This document shows, one piece after another, positions 37,979-49,588 of a DNA stretch of 64,000 nt (positions are counted from its first letter, which is position 1; each line of letters starts with the position of its first letter). The notes below the pieces were generated by a model that had not been told where the DNA came from, searched no databases, and saw nothing but the letters and a program-made list of their open reading frames with translations. The DNA comes from Candidatus Hydrothermarchaeum profundi (GTDB lineage Archaea > Hydrothermarchaeota > Hydrothermarchaeia > Hydrothermarchaeales > Hydrothermarchaeaceae), in NCBI GenBank assembly GCA_002011125.2, contig MTMF02000009.1, positions 84,332 through 148,331 of the forward strand, given 5' to 3'. The translations under genes and the position numbers were made by a program.

Positions 37979-39226
37979 CTAAAAAATACCTTTTCTAGCA
38001 ATATTTAGCATTTCAAAAGAAAAAATTAGCGCAGAAAGAAAGAAGACTAACGCAGAGGCTTTCATAATTGGTACAGAGATTAATGAGCCTAAAAAAAGTC
38101 CTACGATACCAATATTAGCTAGTATAAATATAACCCACGAAAGCCTCTCACTGTAAAGTTCTTTAAAGTTAGAAGGAAGAGACTTAACTTTCTTCTCGGC
38201 CATATTGGCCCAAGTCAACATCGGTATAAGGTGATACATTCCACCGAATATCGTCAAACTTACCCAGCCAAGCATCGCTAGATGAACATGTCCAAAGGAT
38301 AGCTCTCTTAAAATATCTCGATTGAGAAGCATTACAAGACCTACTATTACGACTGCAAGGAAGTATAATATCGCCGCTTCAAGGAACTTCGCCTCTGTGG
38401 ATGTAACCTTCATTTTCATTTTTGATTCTCCAGAGGCTGTTTTGTACATGAGATAGGTAAAAAGAAGCGTTCCTATTATTACTATAATGGCAAAGATAAT
38501 TGTAGTTACTCCAAACCCTGTTGCTATAAGACTTAAAAAGAAACCTACTACTCCAGCGTTGAAGACCCAGAAGACCTGCCTTACTAGACGTTCACTATAA
38601 ATATCCTTCATAACCACCATAGGAAGCATCCAAGACATAGCCCCAATAATGATAACTGATATCCAGCCGAGTGCACCAATATGAGCATGAGAAGCTATTA
38701 GCTTAGAACTTGAAGGTAATATTCTCCAAAGCTCAAGGATTTCCATCCTCATTAGCACTATTATTAACCCTAACGTGCTACCGAGAACTAAGTATACTAC
38801 CGACATAACGTAAAACCAGAGAGTGAACGTCCATGCTCTCTTGTTTTTTACTGTGAGAAAAATATTAGCAGCAAAAGCGTAAACCGCTATAAGTAAAAAA
38901 AGAGAAAAAAGTAGGGTAAAAGGCTCAAACCCGTATGTTGTAATCCCAACTACAAAGCCTATTAGCCCCAGATTTAACATCCAGAAAGATATTTCTCCAA
39001 GAATCTTACTATAAAGATCAGCGCTCGTAAACGTCGGTACCTGCTGATACATTGTGCCGATTATAGTCGCTGAAACGAATCCAAGTAAGGCAATATGTGC
39101 ATGAGATACAATAACATCTCTGGTAATAGGGAATACTTGAAAAAGCATCCCTATACCTAGCGTACACGCCGCTAAGAAATAGACTACAGCTGTAATTAGA
39201 AATCTGAGGCTAAGCTTTCTAGTCAT
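37979..39226 (-). CDS. 12-TM membrane protein made of three tandem 4-TM repeats, each with an HxH motif (possibly distant NnrS / haem-copper-oxidase-like); last gene of the nor operon
   Basis: 415 aa. SHAHIALLGFVS (H42/H44), SHAHIGALGWIS (H180/H182) and GHVHLAMLGWVS (H313/H315) are each followed about 25 residues later by YS(K/E)(I/R)L and a small-residue helix (NLGLIGF / NAGVVGF / NIGIVGLF). The start lies 13 nt downstream of the preceding mini-ORF. Confidence 0.6.
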   Translation of the reverse strand: MTRKLSLRFLITAVVYFLAACTLGIGMLFQVFPITRDVIVSHAHIALLGFVSATIIGTMYQQVPTFTSADLYSKILGEISFWMLNLGLIGFVVGITTYGFEPFTLLFSLFLLIAVYAFAANIFLTVKNKRAWTFTLWFYVMSVVYLVLGSTLGLIIVLMRMEILELWRILPSSSKLIASHAHIGALGWISVIIIGAMSWMLPMVVMKDIYSERLVRQVFWVFNAGVVGFFLSLIATGFGVTTIIFAIIVIIGTLLFTYLMYKTASGESKMKMKVTSTEAKFLEAAILYFLAVVIVGLVMLLNRDILRELSFGHVHLAMLGWVSLTIFGGMYHLIPMLTWANMAEKKVKSLPSNFKELYSERLSWVIFILANIGIVGLFLGSLISVPIMKASALVFFLSALIFSFEMLNIARKGIF

Positions 39227-39703: not shown

Positions 39704-41059
39704 TTACATCTTGGGTCTTAACGTCAGTAGGTCTGTCACAGTTCTCAAGACTCCTATAAAGAACACTATCCCTATGCCTATGACGGCCTTGAACCAGAAC
39801 TGCATCTGAGCTTGTGCTGTCATATATCCAAGTCCTAGCACTCTTTCAAGGTAAGTCTGTAAAATGCCCGCTCCACTGAAAGCTAGTCCTATTCCAGTCA
39901 TGCTGAATATCATTATCCAAAAGCCTAGTTTACCTCTACTATCATCGTAGATTCTGTATCCTTTAATCTCCGGTATAGCGAAGTAGAAGAACATCAAATT
40001 AAACAAAGCATATGCCCCAAAGAAAGCCAAGTGCCCATGTGCTACCGTAACTTGGCTACCGTGAGTATAGTAGTTAATCTGAGGTAAAGTATGCATGAAA
40101 CCCCAAATACCTGCTCCAATGAAGTGGTATAAAGCTCCACCTCCCATGTAGGTCCAAGCTAGAGGGTTGACAAGCTCCATCTTCCTCTCTCTAGTCCACT
40201 TAAATACATCGATCACCATAAGCAGAATTGGCAAAGGCTCCAATGCGCTGAAGACTCCTCCAACATATAGCCAGTACCGAGGGGCTCCAAGCCAATAGTA
40301 GTGATGACCCGTTCCTGCAATACCTGTAAATAAGAATAAACCGATCTCTATGTAGAGCCATTTTTCAACAACCTCTTTGTTAACTCCAGTCAACTTTATA
40401 AGCGCAAATGCCGTGAGTGATGCCACCACAAGCTCCCAAGCGCCTTCAACCCATAGATGGATTACCCACCACCAGTAGTACCAGTCTATGGTTTCATTTT
40501 CATAAACAGGTATCCCGAAGAGATACAGTAAGGAAAGGGTAATCAGTCCGGTTAATAGCATTGCCTGGGTAACGGTCCAATGTTCGCCTTTTAAAATAGT
40601 CATCCCCACATTGAATAAGAAAATTAGTGCACCTACTACCACAAGTAAGTCTAGCCATCTAGGTATCTCAAGAAGAGGTCTACCCTGATTGAAATTGAAC
40701 CAGGGATTATCAATGGTTATTCCCATGCCATTTATGAATATAGTTACTAATGCAGTTACGCCGACTAATACTAACGCTGCGAGTTGTATATACGCAAGCT
40801 TCTTACTATAGAGTTCTCTTTTCGATTCCTCTGGGATCATGTAGTATGTAGCACCCATAAAACCCAGAAGAGACCAGAGCACCAATAGATTAGTATGAAA
40901 TGCTCTTGCGGTTGAGAATGGAAATACGTTCACTAGCCATTGAGGCAGAGTAAAGGCATAGTTTGTCGCTAGCCATAACCCCATTACCACTTGTAGAACG
41001 AACAATAATAAAGCGACAACAAAATAAGGATAGGCGATCTTTTGGCTTTCGTATTTCAT
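39704..41059 (-). CDS. norB: Nitric oxide reductase catalytic subunit NorB (cNOR type)
   Basis: 451 aa, 12 TM, collinear with bacterial NorB as I remember it. Motifs: WWWVIHLWVEGAWE (FeB His/Glu), GTGHHYYW (FeB His pair), AHGHLAFFGAY (haem b3 / haem b ligands), ARAFHTNLL (haem b ligand). Confidence 0.93.
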   Translation of the reverse strand: MKYESQKIAYPYFVVALLLFVLQVVMGLWLATNYAFTLPQWLVNVFPFSTARAFHTNLLVLWSLLGFMGATYYMIPEESKRELYSKKLAYIQLAALVLVGVTALVTIFINGMGITIDNPWFNFNQGRPLLEIPRWLDLLVVVGALIFLFNVGMTILKGEHWTVTQAMLLTGLITLSLLYLFGIPVYENETIDWYYWWWVIHLWVEGAWELVVASLTAFALIKLTGVNKEVVEKWLYIEIGLFLFTGIAGTGHHYYWLGAPRYWLYVGGVFSALEPLPILLMVIDVFKWTRERKMELVNPLAWTYMGGGALYHFIGAGIWGFMHTLPQINYYTHGSQVTVAHGHLAFFGAYALFNLMFFYFAIPEIKGYRIYDDSRGKLGFWIMIFSMTGIGLAFSGAGILQTYLERVLGLGYMTAQAQMQFWFKAVIGIGIVFFIGVLRTVTDLLTLRPKM

Positions 41060-41772
41060 TTCCTACCCTCCTTTAAATTTGCAATATATTCAGCTATGGC
41101 TTCTGCCTCTTCTTCCGAGACTCTTTGTGCTGGCATAGTTGCATCGGGATTAATCGATCTTGGGTCAAGTATATAGTTCTTAATGTAATCTTTATCTCGC
41201 TTCACTTGCTCAAACTCTGGTCCCTGTAGTCCTCCTACACCTCCTAGAGAATGGCATGCTAAGCATCCAGCTTCCTTTATAAGAGCTGCTCCTTTGCTCA
41301 TTCCTACTCCGGCTACAAGAATATTTACCCCTGGCTTATATTTTTGGTCTTGGGGTGGCCAATTATTGTTTTCAATCTCGCTTACCCATTTCAAAAAGGC
41401 TATTAGATTCTTCACCTCTTCCTCTGTTAGGTCATATTTCGGCATTTTTCTCATCGAGTTAGCAAAGACCTTATCAGGACCTAAGACTCTAACTTTTATG
41501 CCCTCCGCTCCTAGTCTCCAATATGCTTTTGTCATGTCTGGAGCGTAATATCCTCCGAAACCAAGTATAGTATGGCAATCATTGCAGTTATACTTCTCCC
41601 ATACAGCTTTTCCAGCAATGACTTGAGGAGTTAATTGGTCTGCGTGGGTTAATGCTGTAACTTGTCTATGGGTATCTATAGTAAGACCTAAGAGTATCAT
41701 TGCTGAAATCGAAGTTCCTATTATAAATATCCATTTAGCTGCTTTGAATTCCATAATATCCCTCCTTCTCAT
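41056..41772 (-). CDS. norC: Nitric oxide reductase subunit NorC fused to a second class-I cytochrome c domain
   Basis: TM anchor, GKAVWEKYNCNDCHTILGFGGYYAPD and FLKWVSEIENNNWPP match NorC. Residues ~150-238 add a second CLACH with a candidate Met ligand in DATMPA. The probable true start is the ATG at 41754, preceded by AGGAGG. ATGA overlap with norB. Confidence 0.9.
   Translation of the reverse strand: MRRRDIMEFKAAKWIFIIGTSISAMILLGLTIDTHRQVTALTHADQLTPQVIAGKAVWEKYNCNDCHTILGFGGYYAPDMTKAYWRLGAEGIKVRVLGPDKVFANSMRKMPKYDLTEEEVKNLIAFLKWVSEIENNNWPPQDQKYKPGVNILVAGVGMSKGAALIKEAGCLACHSLGGVGGLQGPEFEQVKRDKDYIKNYILDPRSINPDATMPAQRVSEEEAEAIAEYIANLKEGRK
41761..41766 (-). promoter_or_regulatory. Shine-Dalgarno AGGAGG 6 nt upstream of the second in-frame ATG (41754) of norC
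   Basis: The minus-sense sequence reads ATGAGAAGGAGGGATATTATGGAATTC. Confidence 0.5.
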
Positions 41773-41904: not shown

Positions 41905-42960
41905 CTACCAGTGAAAGCGGACATTAGATCTAACATTTCTTACCCCTCCCATCAAACCATCAACATGTTTAATTGTAGATGGCAATCCAGTCTTTTCAAA
42001 GAACTTTTCCCATCCAATTCTAGCAATCCAATCCCCAATTCTTTCGTCTCTACGAGCATCTTCCACCCACGTATCGATTATATTCTTAACCGCAGTTACT
42101 ACCTCAGGCCACTGCGGAGGATTATTTGGGATATATGGTATGACCATTTTTGCCCATGCAGGACCTGCACCCGTATTTCCAGCCTTTCCGCCCACGACGA
42201 TTGCTACTCCCGCAGTTTCAGGCCTCATAGTTAGTGCCTCGCAAGTCATGGTACAGTATGCACAGTATATACATCTTTCAGGATTAATTTCTATGCTGTA
42301 TTTGCCTTTTGGTCTAATTGCAGCCGTAGGACAAACTCTTATAGTGGTGGGTCTTTCACAAGCTTTGACCTTTTCTTCATTTATAACAGGCGGCTCTCTA
42401 TACACTCCAACAACACCTATGTTTGAAGTAGAACCCTCGCCACATTGGTTAATGCAACCTGAAACCGAGATTTTGAGCTTAGCAGGATACACTTCATCGT
42501 CTGCAACAAATTCTCCATAAAGAGCATCGGAAATAGCCTTAGCGATACTTGGAGAATCAGCGGCTGCCAATTGACAATGTAACCATCCAGTACAACAAGT
42601 GGTCTGATGAAATCTTCTTCCAGTACCACCTACTGGCAAACCTAATTCGTTGAGTTTAGTTATTAATTCGCTAATTTTTTCTTTTTCTACGCCCACGAAC
42701 TCCACATGATTTCTAGTGGTAACCCTGAAATAACCCTCTGAATATTCATCCGCAAGATCGCATATTTTATAAAGAGTAGAAGTACTCACTCTAGCATTTG
42801 TTGGCATTCCTACTCTAACAGTATAACACTCTTCTCCACCCTTAGATACATGCTTATACACTCCCGCCTTAACAAATTCATGACCAACCCACTTTCCATA
42901 GTTACGCATTATAATAGGGGGTAATACTTCCTCAAATGGAGGTATCCCTACACCGGGCAT
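41905..42960 (-). CDS. dsrB: Dissimilatory-type sulfite reductase beta subunit
   Basis: N-terminus LPPIIMRNYGKWVGHEFVKAGVYKHV, sirohaem/[4Fe-4S] cysteines CTGWLHC ... CINQC, and an inserted ferredoxin domain CIYCAYCTMTC. Confidence 0.85.
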   Translation of the reverse strand: MPGVGIPPFEEVLPPIIMRNYGKWVGHEFVKAGVYKHVSKGGEECYTVRVGMPTNARVSTSTLYKICDLADEYSEGYFRVTTRNHVEFVGVEKEKISELITKLNELGLPVGGTGRRFHQTTCCTGWLHCQLAAADSPSIAKAISDALYGEFVADDEVYPAKLKISVSGCINQCGEGSTSNIGVVGVYREPPVINEEKVKACERPTTIRVCPTAAIRPKGKYSIEINPERCIYCAYCTMTCEALTMRPETAGVAIVVGGKAGNTGAGPAWAKMVIPYIPNNPPQWPEVVTAVKNIIDTWVEDARRDERIGDWIARIGWEKFFEKTGLPSTIKHVDGLMGGVRNVRSNVRFHW

Positions 42961-42961
42961 A

Positions 42962-44104
42962 CTACATCAGCTCCTCTATCTTCCAATGATAAAAGAGGTT
43001 TTCTCTCGGAATAGTGAGTTCCCGTATATCAACTTCTACTCCAACCAATTTTATGAACTTGTCAAATCCAAATCTATGGAGAAACTCTCCCATACGTTCT
43101 TTAGGCATAGCATTCTCATCATAGACTTCTACAACTCTCTCTATAACATCCAAAATTTCCTTGAATTTAGGAGGAGAAGACTTAATGAACGGAACAAGGA
43201 CCTTAGCCAATGTAGGGCCATATTTACTCCTGAACTTACCTCCAACCAGGATGGATGCCCCTCGATCTTCTCCAGGACTAATCGCAGGACACTGATTTAT
43301 GCAATACATGCAATGAACACAGGCTTCTGAATCTATTGTAAGCTCATTTCCATCCCAACTCATAGCCCAGGTGGGGCACTTAGAGCAAATATAGTTAATG
43401 TCCCCGCCATTTTCAACCCAGCTCACTAATTTTTCCTGATCTACTAATGGCGCATCTCTAAAAGTTCCACACACAAAGATCTCGCTTTTGTGGATTCCAA
43501 GCACACAATCATTTGGACAGCCCGCTGCTTTGGTTTTTATCTTATGAGGAAACCTAGGATACTGCATATCATCTAACAAGTGCTTTGTGAATGCATTTCT
43601 AAATCCAATGGTATCGAACAACGCTACGTCACATCTCGCAGGACCAATACAAGCTTTAACCGTTCGAAGAGTGACATCCGTAGAGCCTACATCCAGACCA
43701 ATTTTTTCCACTTCTTTTACGAGATCAGGAATCTTGTCATGCGGTACTTCGATAAGCTCTATATCGCTTGTAGTTGCAAATAGATGAATAAGGCTCCCAC
43801 TATATTTTTCAGCGATTCTACATAGCTCTCGGCACATTTTCGTGGTGAAAAAAAGTCCTGGTGGAGGGAATATGCGTACAACACTTGATTCCTTTATTAT
43901 ATCAGGTCTTTTGGATGCCCGGGCAATTATACCACTAGGTACTCCGAATATTGAAATGTACCCGCCTCCCCGCCACTGGCTAACTTTGTTCTGTAAGGCT
44001 TCTTCATACATCATTATAGAATACTGTGATTTCTTTAACTCCGATGCATGACTGGGCCATGGTCCTTTACAAAGCTCGTCTACAAGAGGAGTATTTAATG
44101 TCAT
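42962..44104 (-). CDS. dsrA: Dissimilatory-type sulfite reductase alpha subunit
   Basis: N-terminus TPLVDELCKGPWPSHASELKK, CIGPARC ... CPNDC, ferredoxin insert CVHCMYCINQCP. A 1-nt gap separates it from dsrB. Confidence 0.85.
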   Translation of the reverse strand: MTLNTPLVDELCKGPWPSHASELKKSQYSIMMYEEALQNKVSQWRGGGYISIFGVPSGIIARASKRPDIIKESSVVRIFPPPGLFFTTKMCRELCRIAEKYSGSLIHLFATTSDIELIEVPHDKIPDLVKEVEKIGLDVGSTDVTLRTVKACIGPARCDVALFDTIGFRNAFTKHLLDDMQYPRFPHKIKTKAAGCPNDCVLGIHKSEIFVCGTFRDAPLVDQEKLVSWVENGGDINYICSKCPTWAMSWDGNELTIDSEACVHCMYCINQCPAISPGEDRGASILVGGKFRSKYGPTLAKVLVPFIKSSPPKFKEILDVIERVVEVYDENAMPKERMGEFLHRFGFDKFIKLVGVEVDIRELTIPRENLFYHWKIEELM

Positions 44105-44154
44105 AATTCTTTCTCGACTTATTTACTCATTAATTTTTTAATAAAAATATATCT

Positions 44155-44198
44155 GCTTTAAATTAAATATAAATAAAGTAAAATCGCTTTAAATTAAA
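44155..44198. repeat. 13-nt direct repeat GCTTTAAATTAAA (x2, starts 31 nt apart) in the nrdG-dsrA intergenic region
   Basis: Copies at 44155-44167 and 44186-44198, about 50 and 80 nt upstream of the dsrA start codon (minus strand). Each contains a TTTAAA TATA-like core. Confidence 0.5.
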
Positions 44199-44259
44199 AT
44201 AGGTCTGTGCAGATTTTTTCACATCTGAATAAAAAGTAGCGTTTTTTAAACAGACTTTC

Positions 44260-44961
44260 TTATTTACCTCTAAAAAAAGCCTTATCTACATTGCAACTGA
44301 TGATCTTAACCAGCTTTTTCATATCATCATCGCTTAAAACTCTCGAATTCCTAAGGCCCCTGTCCATAGCAAATCTCGGCTGGAATTTCTGTAATACGTA
44401 AAGTTTAGCTCCTTTTATATCCCTCGAAATTTGCTCTATGTCCCTAAAAGTATGTAAAGACGGAACTACAGTCGTCCTAAACTCGTACTCTACTCCACTA
44501 TTCTTTATTAAATTTACACTCTCTCTAATCTTATCAACTTCGCATCGCACTCCACTGACTTCAGAATACTGCTCTTCATTTAAGGGAGCTTTTATGTCCA
44601 TAGCAATATAGTCCACAAGGTCTTTTTCCAAAAGCCTTCTAACAACTGTAGGGTTAGTGCCATTCGTATCGAGTTTTATCTTTATCCCCAGCTTCTTCAC
44701 TCTCTCGCAAAACTTATCTAGTCCTTTTTGTAATGTTGGCTCACCGCCTGTAATACAAACTCCATCTATAAAGTCATTATGCTTAGTGAGAAAATCAAAA
44801 ATTTCCTCTTCTTTAACATCTTCATACTGCTCAGGGTTAAGAACTAACCCATGATTATGGCAAAAAGGACATCGTAGGTTACATCCCGGAGTAAAGACTG
44901 TGCATGCTACCTTTCCATCCCAATCTAGGAAAGTTGTATCGATAAATCCTTTAATTTGCAT
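44260..44961 (-). CDS. nrdG: Anaerobic ribonucleotide reductase activating radical-SAM protein
   Basis: FTPGCNLRCPFCHN radical-SAM CxxxCxxC, ITGGEPT, and operon context with nrdD. Confidence 0.85.
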   Translation of the reverse strand: MQIKGFIDTTFLDWDGKVACTVFTPGCNLRCPFCHNHGLVLNPEQYEDVKEEEIFDFLTKHNDFIDGVCITGGEPTLQKGLDKFCERVKKLGIKIKLDTNGTNPTVVRRLLEKDLVDYIAMDIKAPLNEEQYSEVSGVRCEVDKIRESVNLIKNSGVEYEFRTTVVPSLHTFRDIEQISRDIKGAKLYVLQKFQPRFAMDRGLRNSRVLSDDDMKKLVKIISCNVDKAFFRGK

Positions 44962-45197
44962 ATCTCATTCCTGTCCGGTATCTCTCCTCTCCAAGAGCGA
45001 AGCTCATTATCATCATCATCAACTATAATTGTAGTAGGAGTTGAAAGCACGCTATAAAATGCTGCTTCTGCCATTCCATCCACGTCTTCAATGTTAAAGT
45101 ACTCAACCGCGATTCCATCTTTCTCTAAACTTTTACAGATTTCTTTCGTAGGGGGACATTTAGAGCAATTTTCTTGCCAGAATAGCTTGACTTTCAT
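44925..45197 (-). CDS. Glutaredoxin/NrdH-like small redoxin
   Basis: 90 aa with thioredoxin-fold pattern: KVKLFWQENCSKCPPTKE (CxxC) and STPTTII (cis-Pro region). Confidence 0.7.
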   Translation of the reverse strand: MKVKLFWQENCSKCPPTKEICKSLEKDGIAVEYFNIEDVDGMAEAAFYSVLSTPTTIIVDDDDNELRSWRGEIPDRNEICKLKDLSIQLS

Positions 45198-45425: not shown

Positions 45426-47366
45426 TTATAGTCCTCTTGTTGTACGCCCACAATCCAGGCAGCTTGTAAACTCGGGGCTAAATGCGATTTGATCGTTTTG
45501 AGTATTTTTGAATGTTTTAACTACAAAACTCGCTATTCCGCCTGGATCAGGCCTCGCTTCACCAATCCATATATGGGAGAGCGATCCTGCTTCTATTAAT
45601 GGGTGAAACATTCCTTCTTTTTTAACTCTCTCAATCGGGCTTAGAGGCACTCCAACGTTAAGATAAGTCGAATTAGTATAATAAATTTCATTTTTTTCAA
45701 CAATCCCTTTAACTACCGTAAGCGCTTCGTCTCTGTAATGCTCCAAATCTAGTTTGGCCATTCTATAAGCAGTACTTTCCGCGGGAGTTTGCTCTAGAAC
45801 AAATCTAAGTCCATATTTCTCCCCAAGTCTTTCTGCCTCTTTTTTCATGAAAGCAATCACTCTTAGACCAAATTTCAAGGCTTGATTTGACTCATGCATC
45901 TCCTCTCCAGTATGGTATTGTACGAGCTCGTTTAAACCCACCATCCCAAAGAGGAAAGTTGCTCTGTGCAATCTATAATATGGTTCTCCATCTCTATTCA
46001 TAGAGAGCAAGCTTAGGGGGCCCTGATTTTTCATGTCCAATAATTTCTTAATAAAGTTCCTCTTGTAGACATGTGCTCTAGCCATAAGCTCCATTCTTTC
46101 AGTTATTATCTCGAAGAGCCTCTCATCACTTCCGCCCGCTTCATACGCCACTCTCGGGAGGTTGAGGGTTACATTTTGCATGGCTGAATAGCGCATCTTC
46201 CATGGAGTTTTTGCATCCTCAAAATCTGATTTCTCAAGCTTAAAGGAAAGCCGGCAGCACTCACTTATCTTTGCTGTTTCACCCCGGTCGAATACGTAAT
46301 AAGTGTTACCTTTATCAGAAGAAACATCAGAGATTAGGTAAAGGAAATCCTCGTATCCTTCCGTTTTGAATAATCTCTCTGTTATGTGTACCTGAGGTTT
46401 GGGGAAAAAGAAGGGTCTTCCAAGGCCATCACCTTCTTTGTATACTTTGAAAAGCGCTATAGCAAATTTCTGAGATTCTTCGATATAATCCTCATAGTTA
46501 TTCCCCGTAAATTTTCCTCCAGGACCTATAGCAGGAACTCCAATAAAGTGTTTTGGTATTTCCCAATATATATTCAAATCAGAGAATATAGACTGCCCCC
46601 CACGAGCCACGCTTTGCTGAGCAAACTCAAAGATAAGCATCTGTGCTAACTGTTCTAGTTTCTCATTATCCACTCCTACAAGATAAGGTGCAAAAAATAG
46701 GTTTACTGCGTCCCATCCGATAGCTCCCGCAAAATTGCCTTGAAGTGCTGCAGAAAACTTTATCATTTGCCCTATTAGAACTTCAGGATGTTTAGCTGGC
46801 TTTGATATAGATATTGCGTTAGGGAGGCTTAAACCAAACTTTTTTACATATTCTAGCGAGTTTCCAGAACAGTATGGCCTATCTATCATTCCTAAATCAT
46901 GTAAATGGAAATCCCCTTTCTCATGAGCTACAGCAATTTCTGGAGGAAATATTTTTAAAAGTGCATATTGCTTCTTTATTGACTCTGCCAAGGTTAGATT
47001 CGTAGCTTCAGGGCCATGAGGTACATTGGCGTTTTCTCTATTTCGTGATATAAGCATTTGATCTACATCATATATTGGTAACCCTAACCGGGTATGCTGT
47101 TTTCTCTCCTCTTCCAATCCATATTCTATGAGTTTCCCATTTACAACTTCACGTATTAGAGGAGCCGTGATAAACTTTATCTTAGATTTAATTATGGTTT
47201 CTTCGACTTCCTTACTTATTTTTTCAGCAAGTTCGGGGGATATGGTGGTTTCTCTAAGAAGTGCTTCCACTATACTTTTTCTGTCCCATTTAACTACATC
47301 CTCTCTTGAAACCTTAACAAAGAGGGCAGCATCGGTTGAATCGTTTGAAACTATCATTCCAATCAC
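45426..47366 (-). CDS. nrdD: Anaerobic (class III) ribonucleoside-triphosphate reductase, large part lacking the glycyl-radical C-terminus
   Basis: 646 aa with an ATP-cone-like N-terminus and GDFHLHDLG. It ends right after the first zinc CxxC (SCLDCGRTTRGL-stop). Confidence 0.9.
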   Translation of the reverse strand: MIGMIVSNDSTDAALFVKVSREDVVKWDRKSIVEALLRETTISPELAEKISKEVEETIIKSKIKFITAPLIREVVNGKLIEYGLEEERKQHTRLGLPIYDVDQMLISRNRENANVPHGPEATNLTLAESIKKQYALLKIFPPEIAVAHEKGDFHLHDLGMIDRPYCSGNSLEYVKKFGLSLPNAISISKPAKHPEVLIGQMIKFSAALQGNFAGAIGWDAVNLFFAPYLVGVDNEKLEQLAQMLIFEFAQQSVARGGQSIFSDLNIYWEIPKHFIGVPAIGPGGKFTGNNYEDYIEESQKFAIALFKVYKEGDGLGRPFFFPKPQVHITERLFKTEGYEDFLYLISDVSSDKGNTYYVFDRGETAKISECCRLSFKLEKSDFEDAKTPWKMRYSAMQNVTLNLPRVAYEAGGSDERLFEIITERMELMARAHVYKRNFIKKLLDMKNQGPLSLLSMNRDGEPYYRLHRATFLFGMVGLNELVQYHTGEEMHESNQALKFGLRVIAFMKKEAERLGEKYGLRFVLEQTPAESTAYRMAKLDLEHYRDEALTVVKGIVEKNEIYYTNSTYLNVGVPLSPIERVKKEGMFHPLIEAGSLSHIWIGEARPDPGGIASFVVKTFKNTQNDQIAFSPEFTSCLDCGRTTRGL

Positions 47367-48335: not shown

Positions 48336-49010
48336 CTAAAACATTAGGGACAACCATTTTGTAAAGAAGTCTGTGGAGCTTTCCTTTATATAAGTCAAAT
48401 GCTCCGAGGTCTTAGATAGCCCTCTTACTCTAATTCCACTTTTATCACTCCAAGCATTTATCATCTCATCTGTCATTTCTAAATGAAATTGAAGCGCATA
48501 AATGTTGCCTACCTTAAATGCCTGATTTTTATATAGAGTTGACGTTGCAAGCCGTATTGCTTTTTTAGGCAGATCAAAAGTATCACCGTGCCATTGAAAT
48601 ACTGGAAAACTTTGATGAAAACTACGAAAGAGAAAATCTTTTTGGCCTTCTTTCGTTAGTCTAACTCGATACCACCCTATTTCTTTTTTATGCCCGGCAT
48701 AGACTTTCGCCCCAAATGCTTTAGCAATAAGCTGGCACCCTAGACAAATACCAAGTAAAGGTTTACCTTGTAAAAAAGCTTCTTTAATTATCGAAATCTC
48801 TTCTTTCAAAAAAGGATATTTTTTATCATCATACACCCCCATAGGTCCCCCCAGAATGAGTATACCTCTATAATTATCAAGAGAGGGGATCTTCTCTCCT
48901 TTGAATATTTTTACATAGCGATAATTAAAACCTTCATCTACTATTATGTCTTCCAGTATACCCAGAGTTTCTCCATTAGCATTTTGAAGAGCTAGAATCT
49001 TATAAGCCAC
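48336..49010 (-). CDS. Class I glutamine amidotransferase-like protein
   Basis: ILGGPMGVYDD, nucleophile elbow GICLGCQL, and HLE near the C-terminus. Confidence 0.8.
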   Translation of the reverse strand: MAYKILALQNANGETLGILEDIIVDEGFNYRYVKIFKGEKIPSLDNYRGILILGGPMGVYDDKKYPFLKEEISIIKEAFLQGKPLLGICLGCQLIAKAFGAKVYAGHKKEIGWYRVRLTKEGQKDFLFRSFHQSFPVFQWHGDTFDLPKKAIRLATSTLYKNQAFKVGNIYALQFHLEMTDEMINAWSDKSGIRVRGLSKTSEHLTYIKESSTDFFTKWLSLMF

Positions 49011-49072
49011 TTCTAACCCTCTATAACCTACAACTTGGAACCGTTTGCGGAAAAACAGCGGTATGAGTAAGC

Positions 49073-49354
49073 TTATTTCTTTTTTAACAGCTCGTTGAGT
49101 TGCTTTTCTTGGACATATCCTTCAACTTTTATATCGACGTTTTCTATACCTTTGATCTCTTTTATCTTCTCTTTAATAGCAAAAGCAAGCTGTGTACCCA
49201 ACGGGCAGTAGGGGCTTGAGGGAATGAAAGTTAAACTGACATTACCATCTTTGACGGAGAGGTCCTTTATTAATCCCATATCATAAACATTCATATTGGT
49301 ATGTGGGTCCATAACCTTTTTGAGACTTTGAATAACTTCATCCTCAGAAACCAT
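49073..49354 (-). CDS. DUF59/MIP18 (SufT-like) Fe-S assembly-associated protein
   Basis: VIQSLKKVMDPHTNMNVYDMGLI ... PSSPYCPLG pattern. Confidence 0.8.
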   Translation of the reverse strand: MVSEDEVIQSLKKVMDPHTNMNVYDMGLIKDLSVKDGNVSLTFIPSSPYCPLGTQLAFAIKEKIKEIKGIENVDIKVEGYVQEKQLNELLKKK

Positions 49355-49363
49355 ATTGTCACC

Positions 49364-49588
49364 TCACTTTTTTTTAAGTTCTTTTAACTTTTCTTCTCCT
49401 ACGCATTTCTCTGCAAATGAGCACCACTGAACACATGAACTAAGATCCCGGTATACAACTCCCCCACATTCACATTCAGCTTTTGTCTCGTCAGTAAAGA
49501 TCTCAACATCCTTGCCGCATTTTGGACAAGGCAACAATTCTATAGTTGGCCTCAATACACCAGAACTGCCTGGACATCTCATCTCCAT
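49364..49588 (-). CDS. Small cysteine-rich (8 Cys) zinc-ribbon-like protein
   Basis: CPGS...CPKCG...CECGG...CVQWC...C. Its stop lies 9 nt upstream of the DUF59 gene start. Confidence 0.5.
   Translation of the reverse strand: MEMRCPGSSGVLRPTIELLPCPKCGKDVEIFTDETKAECECGGVVYRDLSSCVQWCSFAEKCVGEEKLKELKKK

Follow-up and report, generated by a model that had tools for sequence, protein, structure and literature searches.

The dsrAB pair studied here most plausibly encodes a functional, early-branching ('basal type II') dissimilatory sulfite reductase, which would serve Candidatus Hydrothermarchaeum profundi as a second DsrC-dependent sulfite reductase isoenzyme, while its position beside a nitric-oxide reductase operon would be incidental; we put the probability of this reading at about 0.72. 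The pair lies in a stretch of 64,000 nt of contig MTMF02000009.1 (hereafter the window), where a first-pass annotation had described it as an orphan and had raised a role in nitrogen-oxide metabolism. Given that this DsrAB type has already been described, that its partners are encoded elsewhere in the genome and that the nor adjacency is peculiar to one genome, the finding is largely ordinary.

Integrity and conserved residues of dsrA and dsrB

42962-44104, minus strand: dsrA, 380 aa, alpha subunit of an early-branching ('basal type II') DsrAB, 333 bits to TIGR02064
41905-42960, minus strand: dsrB, 351 aa, beta subunit, 389 bits to TIGR02066

Both genes are intact, and all residues checked for the sirohaem-[4Fe-4S] centre, the ferredoxin domains and substrate binding are kept. 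The ORF calls place A before B on one strand, a single nucleotide separating the stop of dsrA from the start of dsrB. Each protein scored highest against the model of its own subunit; DsrB exceeded the TIGR02066 cut-off of 341.5 bits, DsrA stayed below the TIGR02064 cut-off of 392.85 bits, and both curated cut-offs were passed by the second dsrAB pair of the genome. Similarity to solved DsrA and DsrB was strong and full-length, the best structures being Archaeoglobus fulgidus DsrA (3mm5_A, E 6e-78) and DsrB (3mm5_B, E 2e-88). The earlier call of a dissimilatory-type enzyme was correct.

The sirohaem-[4Fe-4S] cysteine motifs occur in both subunits exactly as first written, namely CIGPARC (C152-X5-C158) and CPNDC (C196-X3-C200) in DsrA, and CTGWLHC (C123-X5-C129) and CINQC (C169-X3-C173) in DsrB, and Cys152, 158, 196 and 200 of DsrA were kept in all DsrA clades compared. 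The inserted ferredoxin domains, also claimed from the beginning, were recovered as cysteine clusters in both proteins: C243, C262, C265 and C268 of DsrA were invariant in the alignment, and the DsrB segment CERPTTIRVCP...CIYCAYCTMTC aligned with A. fulgidus DsrB. When the substrate pocket was compared with characterised DsrAB, a check that the first-pass annotation had proposed, all of DsrA R77, R147, K188 and K190 (R98, R170, K211 and K213 in A. fulgidus) were kept, and they were invariant in all clades examined. DsrB retains the full CX5C...CX3C motif, found typically in basal and archaeal DsrB, in place of which bacterial reductive, oxidative and Archaeoglobus DsrB carry HTQGWxHC and CCxxxC. 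DsrB was also examined for signs of a second substrate pocket; its K-x-K/R motif is found in other clades as well and is not distinctive.

The window pair resembles the systems of A. fulgidus (DsrAB, 3mm5) and Desulfovibrio (DsrAB-DsrC, 2v4j and 3or1) in its two-subunit architecture with ferredoxin inserts, in the Arg/Arg/Lys/Lys pocket of DsrA and in its sirohaem cluster cysteines. In contrast to these systems, the window DsrA is shorter by about 18 residues at its N-terminus, DsrB has retained the ancestral CX5C...CX3C instead of TQGWxxC...CCxxxC, and no DsrD was found in the window's genome by a Pfam search that had no positive control and a phmmer search whose Archaeoglobus-type query was too insensitive.

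Phylogenetic placement and genomic partners

Both the concatenated and the paralog-rooted trees grouped the pair with three Hydrothermarchaeales orthologs, adjoining Verrucomicrobiota/Phycisphaerae and Nitrospirota, with a support of 100 in the concatenated DsrAB tree and of 90 (A side) and 99 (B side) in the paralog-rooted trees. The transitional-archaeal, reductive and oxidative types formed one clade (support 99 for A and 92 for B), and both subunits of the window pair branched outside it. The clade of the pair, composed of Verrucomicrobiota, Planctomycetota, Nitrospirota and a few Hydrothermarchaeota, matches the published 'basal type II DsrAB' (PMC12948486, mLife 2026), whose two subunits likewise branch before the other three types, for which one archaeon of the Hydrothermarchaeota is listed, and which corresponds to the 'early-diverging' DsrAB of Verrucomicrobiota, Methylomirabilota and Planctomycetota (Anantharaman 2018, Neukirchen 2023, Diao 2023). 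According to PMC12948486, none of the basal-type DsrAB has been biochemically shown to reduce sulfite. Since the pair is early-branching, the earlier view that it is not the DsrAB of ordinary sulfate reducers was right; a position inside those reducers, which the first-pass annotation had named as evidence against its proposal, was not what the trees gave, and an assignment to the reductive bacterial type was rejected both by the tree and by the different DsrB motifs. Within Hydrothermarchaeales this DsrAB type is patchy (4 of 37 class-level relatives, namely G002, G007, G015 and G022), and the dsrAB tree of this order would fit an ancient acquisition that two families share and have retained by vertical descent.

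In the other members of the clade, dsrAB belongs to dsrC-dsrM-dsrK operons, to which the archaeal members add tusA/dsrE genes. The bacterial members carry dsrABC or dsrABC-dsrMK clusters, and archaeal contigs with a DsrA 64-65% identical to the window's have the order dsrH-dsrE-dsrE-tusA-dsrK-dsrM-dsrC-dsrA-dsrB-dsrE. The window dsrAB differs from other basal type II loci in being detached from dsrC/dsrMK by about 1.6 Mb and in standing beside a nitric-oxide reductase of the cNOR type, and its DsrA is without the roughly 90-aa N-terminal zinc-ribbon extension of bacterial basal type II DsrA.

The genome of 2.19 Mb contains, besides a second dsrAB pair (C9:741962-744216), one copy of DsrC (C9:1759506-1759853), which ends ...CKYAGLPKPTGCV and keeps both C-terminal cysteines. 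DsrK scored above its cut-off (523 bits against 400) and was, in pairwise comparisons, 55-58% identical to the DsrK encoded beside basal type II dsrAB elsewhere; a DsrM-like protein remained below the cut-off (155 bits against 300), with DsrM as its best match. AprA passed NF005331 (721 bits against 557), Sat passed TIGR00339, and AprB and DsrE2 were also present. A CobB/CfbB-like amidase (C9:187741-189249) is a candidate DsrN. Genome-wide searches placed dsrC, aprA and sat outside the window, and the ORFs scanned around the pair included no dsrC, dsrD, dsrN, dsrMK, sat or apr, as had been noted at first sight. The term orphan is therefore accurate within the window but not for the genome, which has dsrC, dsrK, dsrM, dsrE2, tusA, aprAB, sat and a second dsrAB; the search for dsrC, dsrMK, sat and apr that had been recommended recovered all of them, and such a gene set elsewhere in the genome was part of what the first-pass annotation had named as speaking against its own proposal. 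The single DsrC may serve mainly the other DsrAB enzyme, because the second pair passes the curated cut-offs and the DsrC gene adjoins this second dsrAB type in the relative G006.

Moorella thermoacetica (PMC10504309) likewise has two phylogenetically distant dsrAB pairs, of which one is early-branching and located away from the main dsr cluster; its second copy is 'basal type I' (Firmicutes/Chloroflexota) according to PMC12948486, our trees being built without a Moorella sequence. Additional, bacteria-like dsrA genes were reported for the Hydrothermarchaeota MAG JdFR-18 and for SAGs (Carr et al. 2019, PMC6775978), where non-monophyletic dsrA genes occur within single genomes together with sat, apr and Nap; that study makes no mention of a nitric-oxide reductase, whereas the window has a cNOR beside dsrAB.

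On the model of characterised DsrAB, sulfite would bind at the sirohaem, whose [4Fe-4S] cluster would be held by DsrB cysteines and whose pocket would be lined by DsrA Arg77, Arg147, Lys188 and Lys190. The only DsrC of the genome would then take over the partly reduced sulfur on its two C-terminal cysteines, and the resulting DsrC trisulfide would be reduced by the distantly encoded membrane DsrMK, while AprAB and Sat could supply sulfite from sulfate. The enzyme would accordingly be predicted to run in the reductive direction and to use a shared DsrC and DsrMK.

The adjacent nitric-oxide reductase and the flanking regions

37979-39226, downstream of nor: oxidase-like (HCO-like) 12-helix membrane protein
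39704-41059, minus strand: norB, full-length match to cNOR NorB
41056-41772, minus strand: norC, dihaem, with two cytochrome c domains, matching PF22085
41773-41904, minus strand: dsrB-norC spacer, 132 nt, runs of five and seven T followed by an AT-rich, TATA-like stretch
44105-44259, minus strand: nrdG-dsrA region, 155 nt, AT-rich, probable dsrAB promoter
44260-44961, minus strand, upstream of dsrA: nrdG
44925-45197, minus strand, upstream of dsrA: Thioredoxin_3 protein
45426-47366, minus strand, upstream of dsrA: nrdD

The flanks agree with the first description, with nrdD and nrdG upstream and a true cNOR (norCB) 132 nt downstream on the same strand. NorB could be aligned along its whole length with the Pseudomonas aeruginosa cNOR NorB 3o0r_B (E 5e-116) and also matched 4xyd_A (E 1e-113), and norC, the cytochrome c subunit, lies directly upstream of norB, as befits a cNOR. 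The closest NorB homologs are 65-72% identical, and those of them bearing a source name are bacterial, at 65-68% identity. None of 60 relatives, four of which have this DsrAB type, yielded a NorB ortholog, no nor gene was found at the dsrAB loci of the closest relatives, and no dsr gene adjoins the nearest nor operon. The closest metagenomic relative (L126, DsrA 77% identical) has a dsrAB neighbourhood with a GATase, a DUF59 protein and a Cys-rich protein like the window's, but without nor. We judge norCB to be a separate cNOR unit and not part of the Dsr system, and its juxtaposition with dsrAB to be probably incidental.

The distance from dsrB to norC is 132 nt to the first ATG and 152 nt to a second ATG preceded by GGAGGG. 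Oligo-T termination is established in archaea, and the T-runs of the spacer, with the TATA-like stretch behind them, suggest that it is probably a transcript boundary. The cNOR genes would then be transcribed separately from their own promoter, as a lineage-specific addition of bacterial type. On the other side, the 155-nt region is probably the promoter region of dsrAB and holds two exact copies of a 13-nt element (44155-44167 and 44186-44198) that occurs nowhere else in the window. The element is not enriched in the genome and has no copy near other dsr, apr or sat genes; a role as a regulatory motif shared by dsrA and norC was rejected, as it is absent upstream of norC.

Two further candidate links were set aside. 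The cupin of the window shares 38% identity with a cupin encoded immediately behind dsrB in G007 and 70% with another that lies 2 kb from dsrAB in G012; this carries no weight because small cupins are too common. HPP/CBS genes adjoin dsrAB in G002 and G012, and nitrite transporters are known within the HPP family (Maeda 2014, as cited in PMC7438415); the window's genome has no HPP gene.

Alternative readings and significance

The adjacency had suggested that DsrAB works in nitrogen-oxide metabolism, and in one form of this proposal the enzyme would act mainly on nitrite, as a nitrite reductase or NO source, with the adjacent cNOR removing the NO. Nitrite reduction by sirohaem enzymes is established, the two gene pairs are neighbours on one strand, and neither nirK nor nirS was found in the genome, in which a NapA-like protein and type II DMSO-reductase-family enzymes could make nitrite. 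We consider this very improbable, since nor is missing from all 60 relatives and hence from every one with this DsrAB type, the clade is embedded in dsrC/dsrMK/tusA/dsrE clusters, the nearest nor operon stands apart from dsr, and both the T-runs of the spacer and the unshared 13-nt element speak against a common module. Moreover, the NapA-like gene lies directly beside a gene for an HAO-family octahaem cytochrome (best structural matches 4qo5 and 6h5l), and this cytochrome is a stronger candidate than DsrAB for reducing nitrite or forming NO. A functional tie by which DsrAB leaks NO from Nap-derived nitrite that the cNOR removes, or by which NOR protects the sirohaem enzyme, appears improbable, although a NOR is present in the genome without NirK or NirS. 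The idea would matter only if the enzyme preferred nitrite, and nothing found suggests so.

The protective variant could also extend to the HCO-like 12-helix protein, which together with NOR would shield the sirohaem and Fe-S centres of DsrAB from poisoning by nitrite or NO. Nitrite inhibits Dsr (PMC5965020), and L126 has a COX1-family 12-helix protein, a ScdA_N protein and a DUF2249 protein 3.5 kb from dsrAB. A conserved linkage suggested by this locus was rejected, however, as the HCO-like protein is widespread in the order (26 of 60 relatives), sits on a different contig from dsrAB wherever both are present, and is missing or weakly matched in G007, G015 and G022, all of which have this DsrAB type; the L126 copy is 33% identical to the window's, compared with 77% for DsrA. 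With nor unique to this genome among the 60 relatives, such a co-location seems an improbable explanation too.

That dsrAB and norCB arrived together by horizontal transfer, as a single anaerobic-respiration island, had been offered as the other explanation. The mostly bacterial DsrAB clade, its patchiness in Hydrothermarchaeales, the bacterial source-named NorB homologs and a G+C of 0.41-0.43 for the genes from dsrA to the cupin, where the genome averages 0.39, all point in this direction. But the window holds no tRNA gene, the flanking ORFs scanned are housekeeping genes with no integrase or transposase families among them, and codon usage is ordinary (17th percentile for dsrA, 71st for dsrB). 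The distributions of the two operons also differ, the dsrAB tree fitting an old vertical history while nor is confined to this genome, and L126 shares the dsrAB neighbourhood without nor. A joint acquisition is thus highly improbable.

An oxidative or disproportionating DsrAB, with sulfur arriving through a TusA/DsrE relay onto DsrC and no sulfite respiration, is unlikely, although it draws on the dsrKMC-dsrAB operons of the archaeal relatives at 64-65% identity, which include DsrH, three to four DsrE-family proteins and TusA, and on the three TusA copies, DsrE2, DsrE-like 95-aa protein and split YeeE/YedE transporter next to dsrC-dsrKM in the genome itself. The DsrH and two DsrE/F-like proteins of those operons have no match in this genome, however, and the organism otherwise looks strictly anaerobic, its ribonucleotide reductases being of classes III and II and the window showing no evident terminal oxidase. 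Published surveys, moreover, treat organisms with early-diverging DsrAB as reductive (PMC10591310).

If the preferred reading of a second, DsrC-dependent sulfite reductase is right, the locus would be another example of the published pattern of two phylogenetically distant DsrAB sets in Hydrothermarchaeota, one of which belongs to the deepest-branching DsrAB lineages, by which the origin of sulfite respiration is dated. Because the early-branching DsrAB and the second isoenzyme would have one DsrC and one DsrMK in common, the value of the locus is that of a clean, complete-genome test case in which a basal-type enzyme could be assayed biochemically for the first time; the published evolutionary scenarios depend on such an assay.

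The dsrAB pair and its lineage

We found open reading frames at both positions where the first-pass annotation had placed dsrAB, on the same strand and one base apart:

42962-44104, reverse strand: dsrA
41905-42960, reverse strand: dsrB

Scored on the NCBIfam subunit models, DsrB cleared TIGR02066 with 389 bits (cut-off 341.5), and DsrA reached 333 bits on TIGR02064, short of the 392.85 required. The top solved-structure matches were DsrA and DsrB of Archaeoglobus fulgidus, aligned over near-complete length (E 6e-78 and 2e-88, respectively). The sirohaem cysteine motifs previously quoted were found in both subunits, and the claim of inserted ferredoxin domains was borne out by the ferredoxin-insert cysteines. 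When the substrate residues were compared with those of characterised DsrAB, the sulfite-binding residues were kept and nothing checked argued against sulfite: R77, R147, K188 and K190 of the window DsrA are the counterparts of the four basic sulfite-binding residues of A. fulgidus DsrA, and in an alignment across DsrA clades they and the DsrA cluster cysteines were invariant in every clade. The window dsrAB is a genuine, intact, early-branching DsrAB.

The DsrB pattern CTGWLHC...GCINQC is common to all basal and archaeal lineages, and HTQGWxHC...CCxxxC replaces it in the bacterial reductive, oxidative and Archaeoglobus types. Read from the alignment, it is a lineage marker agreeing with the tree and no peculiarity of the window dsrB.

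A set of 97 DsrA/DsrB pairs, covering named genomes as well as relatives of the window's genome, was used for the phylogeny; the references omit Moorella and Thermoproteales, and the single Thermoplasmata sequence forms a long branch. Concatenation of the two subunits placed the window pair with three Hydrothermarchaeales orthologs (from G002, G007 and G015; 73-76% identity), followed outwards by Verrucomicrobiota/Phycisphaerae and then by a sub-clade of Nitrospirota and one further Hydrothermarchaeota genome (G022); the stem leading to this whole clade was long and had 100% support. When DsrA and DsrB were combined in one paralog-rooted tree under a site-heterogeneous model, the same clade (support 90 for DsrA and 99 for DsrB) fell outside the group of transitional archaeal, bacterial reductive/Archaeoglobus and oxidative types (support 99 and 92). 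The pair is thus of an early-branching type, and it does not lie inside the bacterial reductive type. Judged by these placements, the clade is the 'basal type II DsrAB' of PMC12948486, whose members there are Verrucomicrobiota, Planctomycetota, Chloroflexota, Methylomirabilota and one Hydrothermarchaeota archaeon, with other Hydrothermarchaeota copies put in a 'transitional archaeal type'. Non-monophyletic dsrA genes inside single Hydrothermarchaeota genomes (Carr et al. 2019, PMC6775978) and several lateral acquisitions in Hydrothermarchaeota (Diao et al. 2023) have been described, and the basal type II lineage and its occurrence in Hydrothermarchaeota are already published.

Two variations were observed within this lineage. 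In DsrB of the sub-clade of Nitrospirota and the further Hydrothermarchaeota genome (loci L047, L048 and L049), the second CX3C cysteine is lost (GCAN-IEEA), and the DsrB-bound cluster site may differ or be lost. Bacterial basal type II DsrA (L043-L046, L052) carries an N-terminal extension of ~90 aa with two CxxC pairs, a homologue of which is a separate 103-aa gene just upstream of dsrA at a Thermoplasmata locus (L050:7648-7959); no copy of either form was detectable in the window's genome.

Sulfur genes elsewhere in the genome

The assembly holding the window is 2.19 Mb and 97.7% complete, and the window lies on its 1.9 Mb contig, C9. The pair had been called an orphan, a description that does not hold for the genome: a search for dsrC, dsrMK, sat and apr recovered dsrC, dsrK, a DsrM-like gene, sat, aprA and aprB, and C9 itself bears dsrC, dsrK, the DsrM-like gene, DsrE2, TusA, an apr-sat cluster and a second dsrAB.

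C9:1759506-1759853: dsrC, single copy, C-terminus ...CKYAGLPKPTGCV, both redox-active cysteines present
C9:1015594-1022014: apr-sat cluster of aprA, aprB, sat, two SiR/NiR-like genes and an FrhB-like gene
C9:741962-744216: second dsrAB pair, 42-44% identity to the window pair

Near dsrC are DsrK (523 bits, cut-off 400) and a cytochrome b with DsrM as best hit at 155 bits, below the cut-off, together with small DsrE-like proteins, a split YeeE/YedE transporter, three TusA homologs and DsrE2. Directly downstream of dsrK lies a 105-aa ORF (C9:1760862-1761179) that begins like a signal peptide and contains two CxxCH motifs; it matched no Pfam family and could be a reduced DsrJ-like cytochrome. AprA scored 721 bits on NF005331 (cut-off 557) and fell under the TIGR02061 cut-off; the next gene encodes a short AprB (105 aa). 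Sat, of 597 aa with a C-terminal extension, scored above its cut-off and is followed 3′ by two small sulfite/nitrite-reductase-like proteins (286 and 236 aa) and an FrhB/FpoF-like protein; this tail resembles a split F420-dependent sulfite reductase of the Fsr type, joined to an APS pathway. The second pair passed both NCBIfam cut-offs (454 and 482 bits) and fell among the 'transitional' archaeal pairs in the paralog-rooted tree; upstream of it, in divergent orientation, are a HemA-like gene and one for a 61-aa ferredoxin. One CobB/CfbB-like amidase, also on C9, could be DsrN, and a genome search run without a positive control found no DsrD. Two giant ORFs rich in haem-binding motifs were also seen, at C9:916461-928235 (67 CxxCH in 3,924 aa) and C9:936624-942731 (33 in 2,035 aa).

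In other genomes with the window DsrAB type, dsrAB is followed by dsrC or dsrC-dsrM-dsrK (Verrucomicrobiota) or by dsrC (Nitrospirota), and has dsrC and dsrK downstream at a Phycisphaerae locus; in a Hydrothermarchaeales genome (G007) a TusA gene is immediately 5′ of dsrA. Archaeal contigs with DsrA 64-65% identical to that of the window carry dsrH-dsrE-dsrE-tusA-dsrK-dsrM-dsrC-dsrA-dsrB-dsrE. The genome's DsrK is 55-58% identical to DsrK adjoining basal type II dsrAB elsewhere, its DsrC is 62% identical to that of the archaeal cluster, and counterparts of three small genes of that cluster adjoin its dsrKM. Because this DsrC is also 80% identical to that of a relative (G006) in which it adjoins the other dsrAB type, the single DsrC may serve both enzymes.

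The nor operon and nitrogen oxides

The flanks proved to be as first described. The RNR operon, with nrdG, a gene for a small thioredoxin-fold protein and nrdD, lies upstream in the same orientation, and dsrB is followed after 132 nt by genes for a dihaem c-type cytochrome and a haem-copper subunit. The latter is a true cNOR NorB, matching Pseudomonas aeruginosa 3o0r_B over its full length (E 5e-116). The 132-nt spacer contains T5 and T7 runs and then an AT-rich stretch, which, as oligo-T termination is known in archaea, may mark a transcript boundary. No tRNA gene was found in the window and no mobility family among the flanking ORFs scanned; codon usage of dsrA and dsrB was ordinary. A 13-nt repeat upstream of dsrA, considered as a regulatory lead, was found nowhere relevant.

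From this juxtaposition the first-pass annotation had suggested that DsrAB might work in nitrogen-oxide metabolism, a reading that comparison with relatives does not support. A search of 60 relatives found no NorB ortholog, the hits being only three haem-copper paralogs (32-34% identity), none of them in the four genomes with the window DsrAB type (G002, G007, G015 and G022), and other dsrAB loci have other neighbours: in G002, G007, G015 and the closest metagenomic relative (L126; DsrA 77% identical), these include a CopD-like membrane protein, a small thioredoxin, CBS, HPP and cupin. L126 has the GATase, DUF59 and Cys-rich mini-protein genes of window 48336-49588, reordered and without nor. 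The closest source-named NorB proteins (65-72% identity) are from Zixibacteria, Nitrospirota, Thermodesulfovibrionales and Deltaproteobacteria, and no dsr gene lies within 8 kb of the nearest nor operon (72%). In that operon (L131-L134), NorC is a monohaem protein of 144 aa, and a 145-aa cytochrome c is encoded by a separate, divergent gene, whereas the window has one fused dihaem NorC. The window cNOR genes are of bacterial type and specific to this lineage, and we judge their adjacency to dsrAB incidental. Dsr is known to be inhibited by nitrite (PMC5965020), which kept in play a protective role in which NOR shields DsrAB; we consider this role unlikely, and it is backed by no conserved gene arrangement.

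As for nitrite, nirS is absent from the genome and nirK has no convincing match there. The genome encodes a 1155-aa type II DMSO-reductase family member and a NapA-like enzyme (657 bits, NapA as best hit, Tat signal), the latter beside a cytochrome:

C8:20240-24099 (a further contig): NapA-like gene and adjoining eight-haem hydroxylamine-oxidoreductase (HAO)-family cytochrome

The best structural relatives of this cytochrome are 4qo5, which we take to be the Ignicoccus octahaem reducing nitrite, and 6h5l, presumably an HAO-like nitrite-reducing, NO-forming enzyme. The two genes would form a possible route from nitrate via nitrite to ammonium or NO, and the cytochrome, on these likenesses, is a thriftier route for nitrite turnover and source of NO than DsrAB. 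We give a nitrogen-oxide role for the window DsrAB a chance of a few per cent.

Other neighbours of dsrAB were noted. A CBS-domain protein adjoins it at three loci (L036:866-2004, L040:9024-10161, L048:10549-11175), and an HPP-family membrane protein does so in two Hydrothermarchaeales genomes; although G002 and G012 are of different families, their HPP proteins share 87% identity. The HPP family includes nitrite transporters, according to the passage of PMC7438415 citing Maeda 2014. HPP was rejected as a nitrite-transport lead: it follows dsrAB in G002, and the window's genome has none. In L126, a block of COX1-family 12-helix, ScdA_N, DUF2249 and DUF59 proteins (L126:1551-3526) lies 3.5 kb from dsrAB. 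This suggested a link between dsrAB and the window gene for an HCO-like 12-helix protein that follows nor, but 26 of the 60 relatives carry that gene, on contigs unrelated to dsrAB, and the link was dropped.

The genome holds a minimal Dsr set with Apr and Sat, and the window pair is a second isoenzyme. Most likely, the window DsrAB would carry out DsrC-dependent sulfite reduction fed by DsrMK, a catalytic direction that we infer, as we do the sharing of DsrC.
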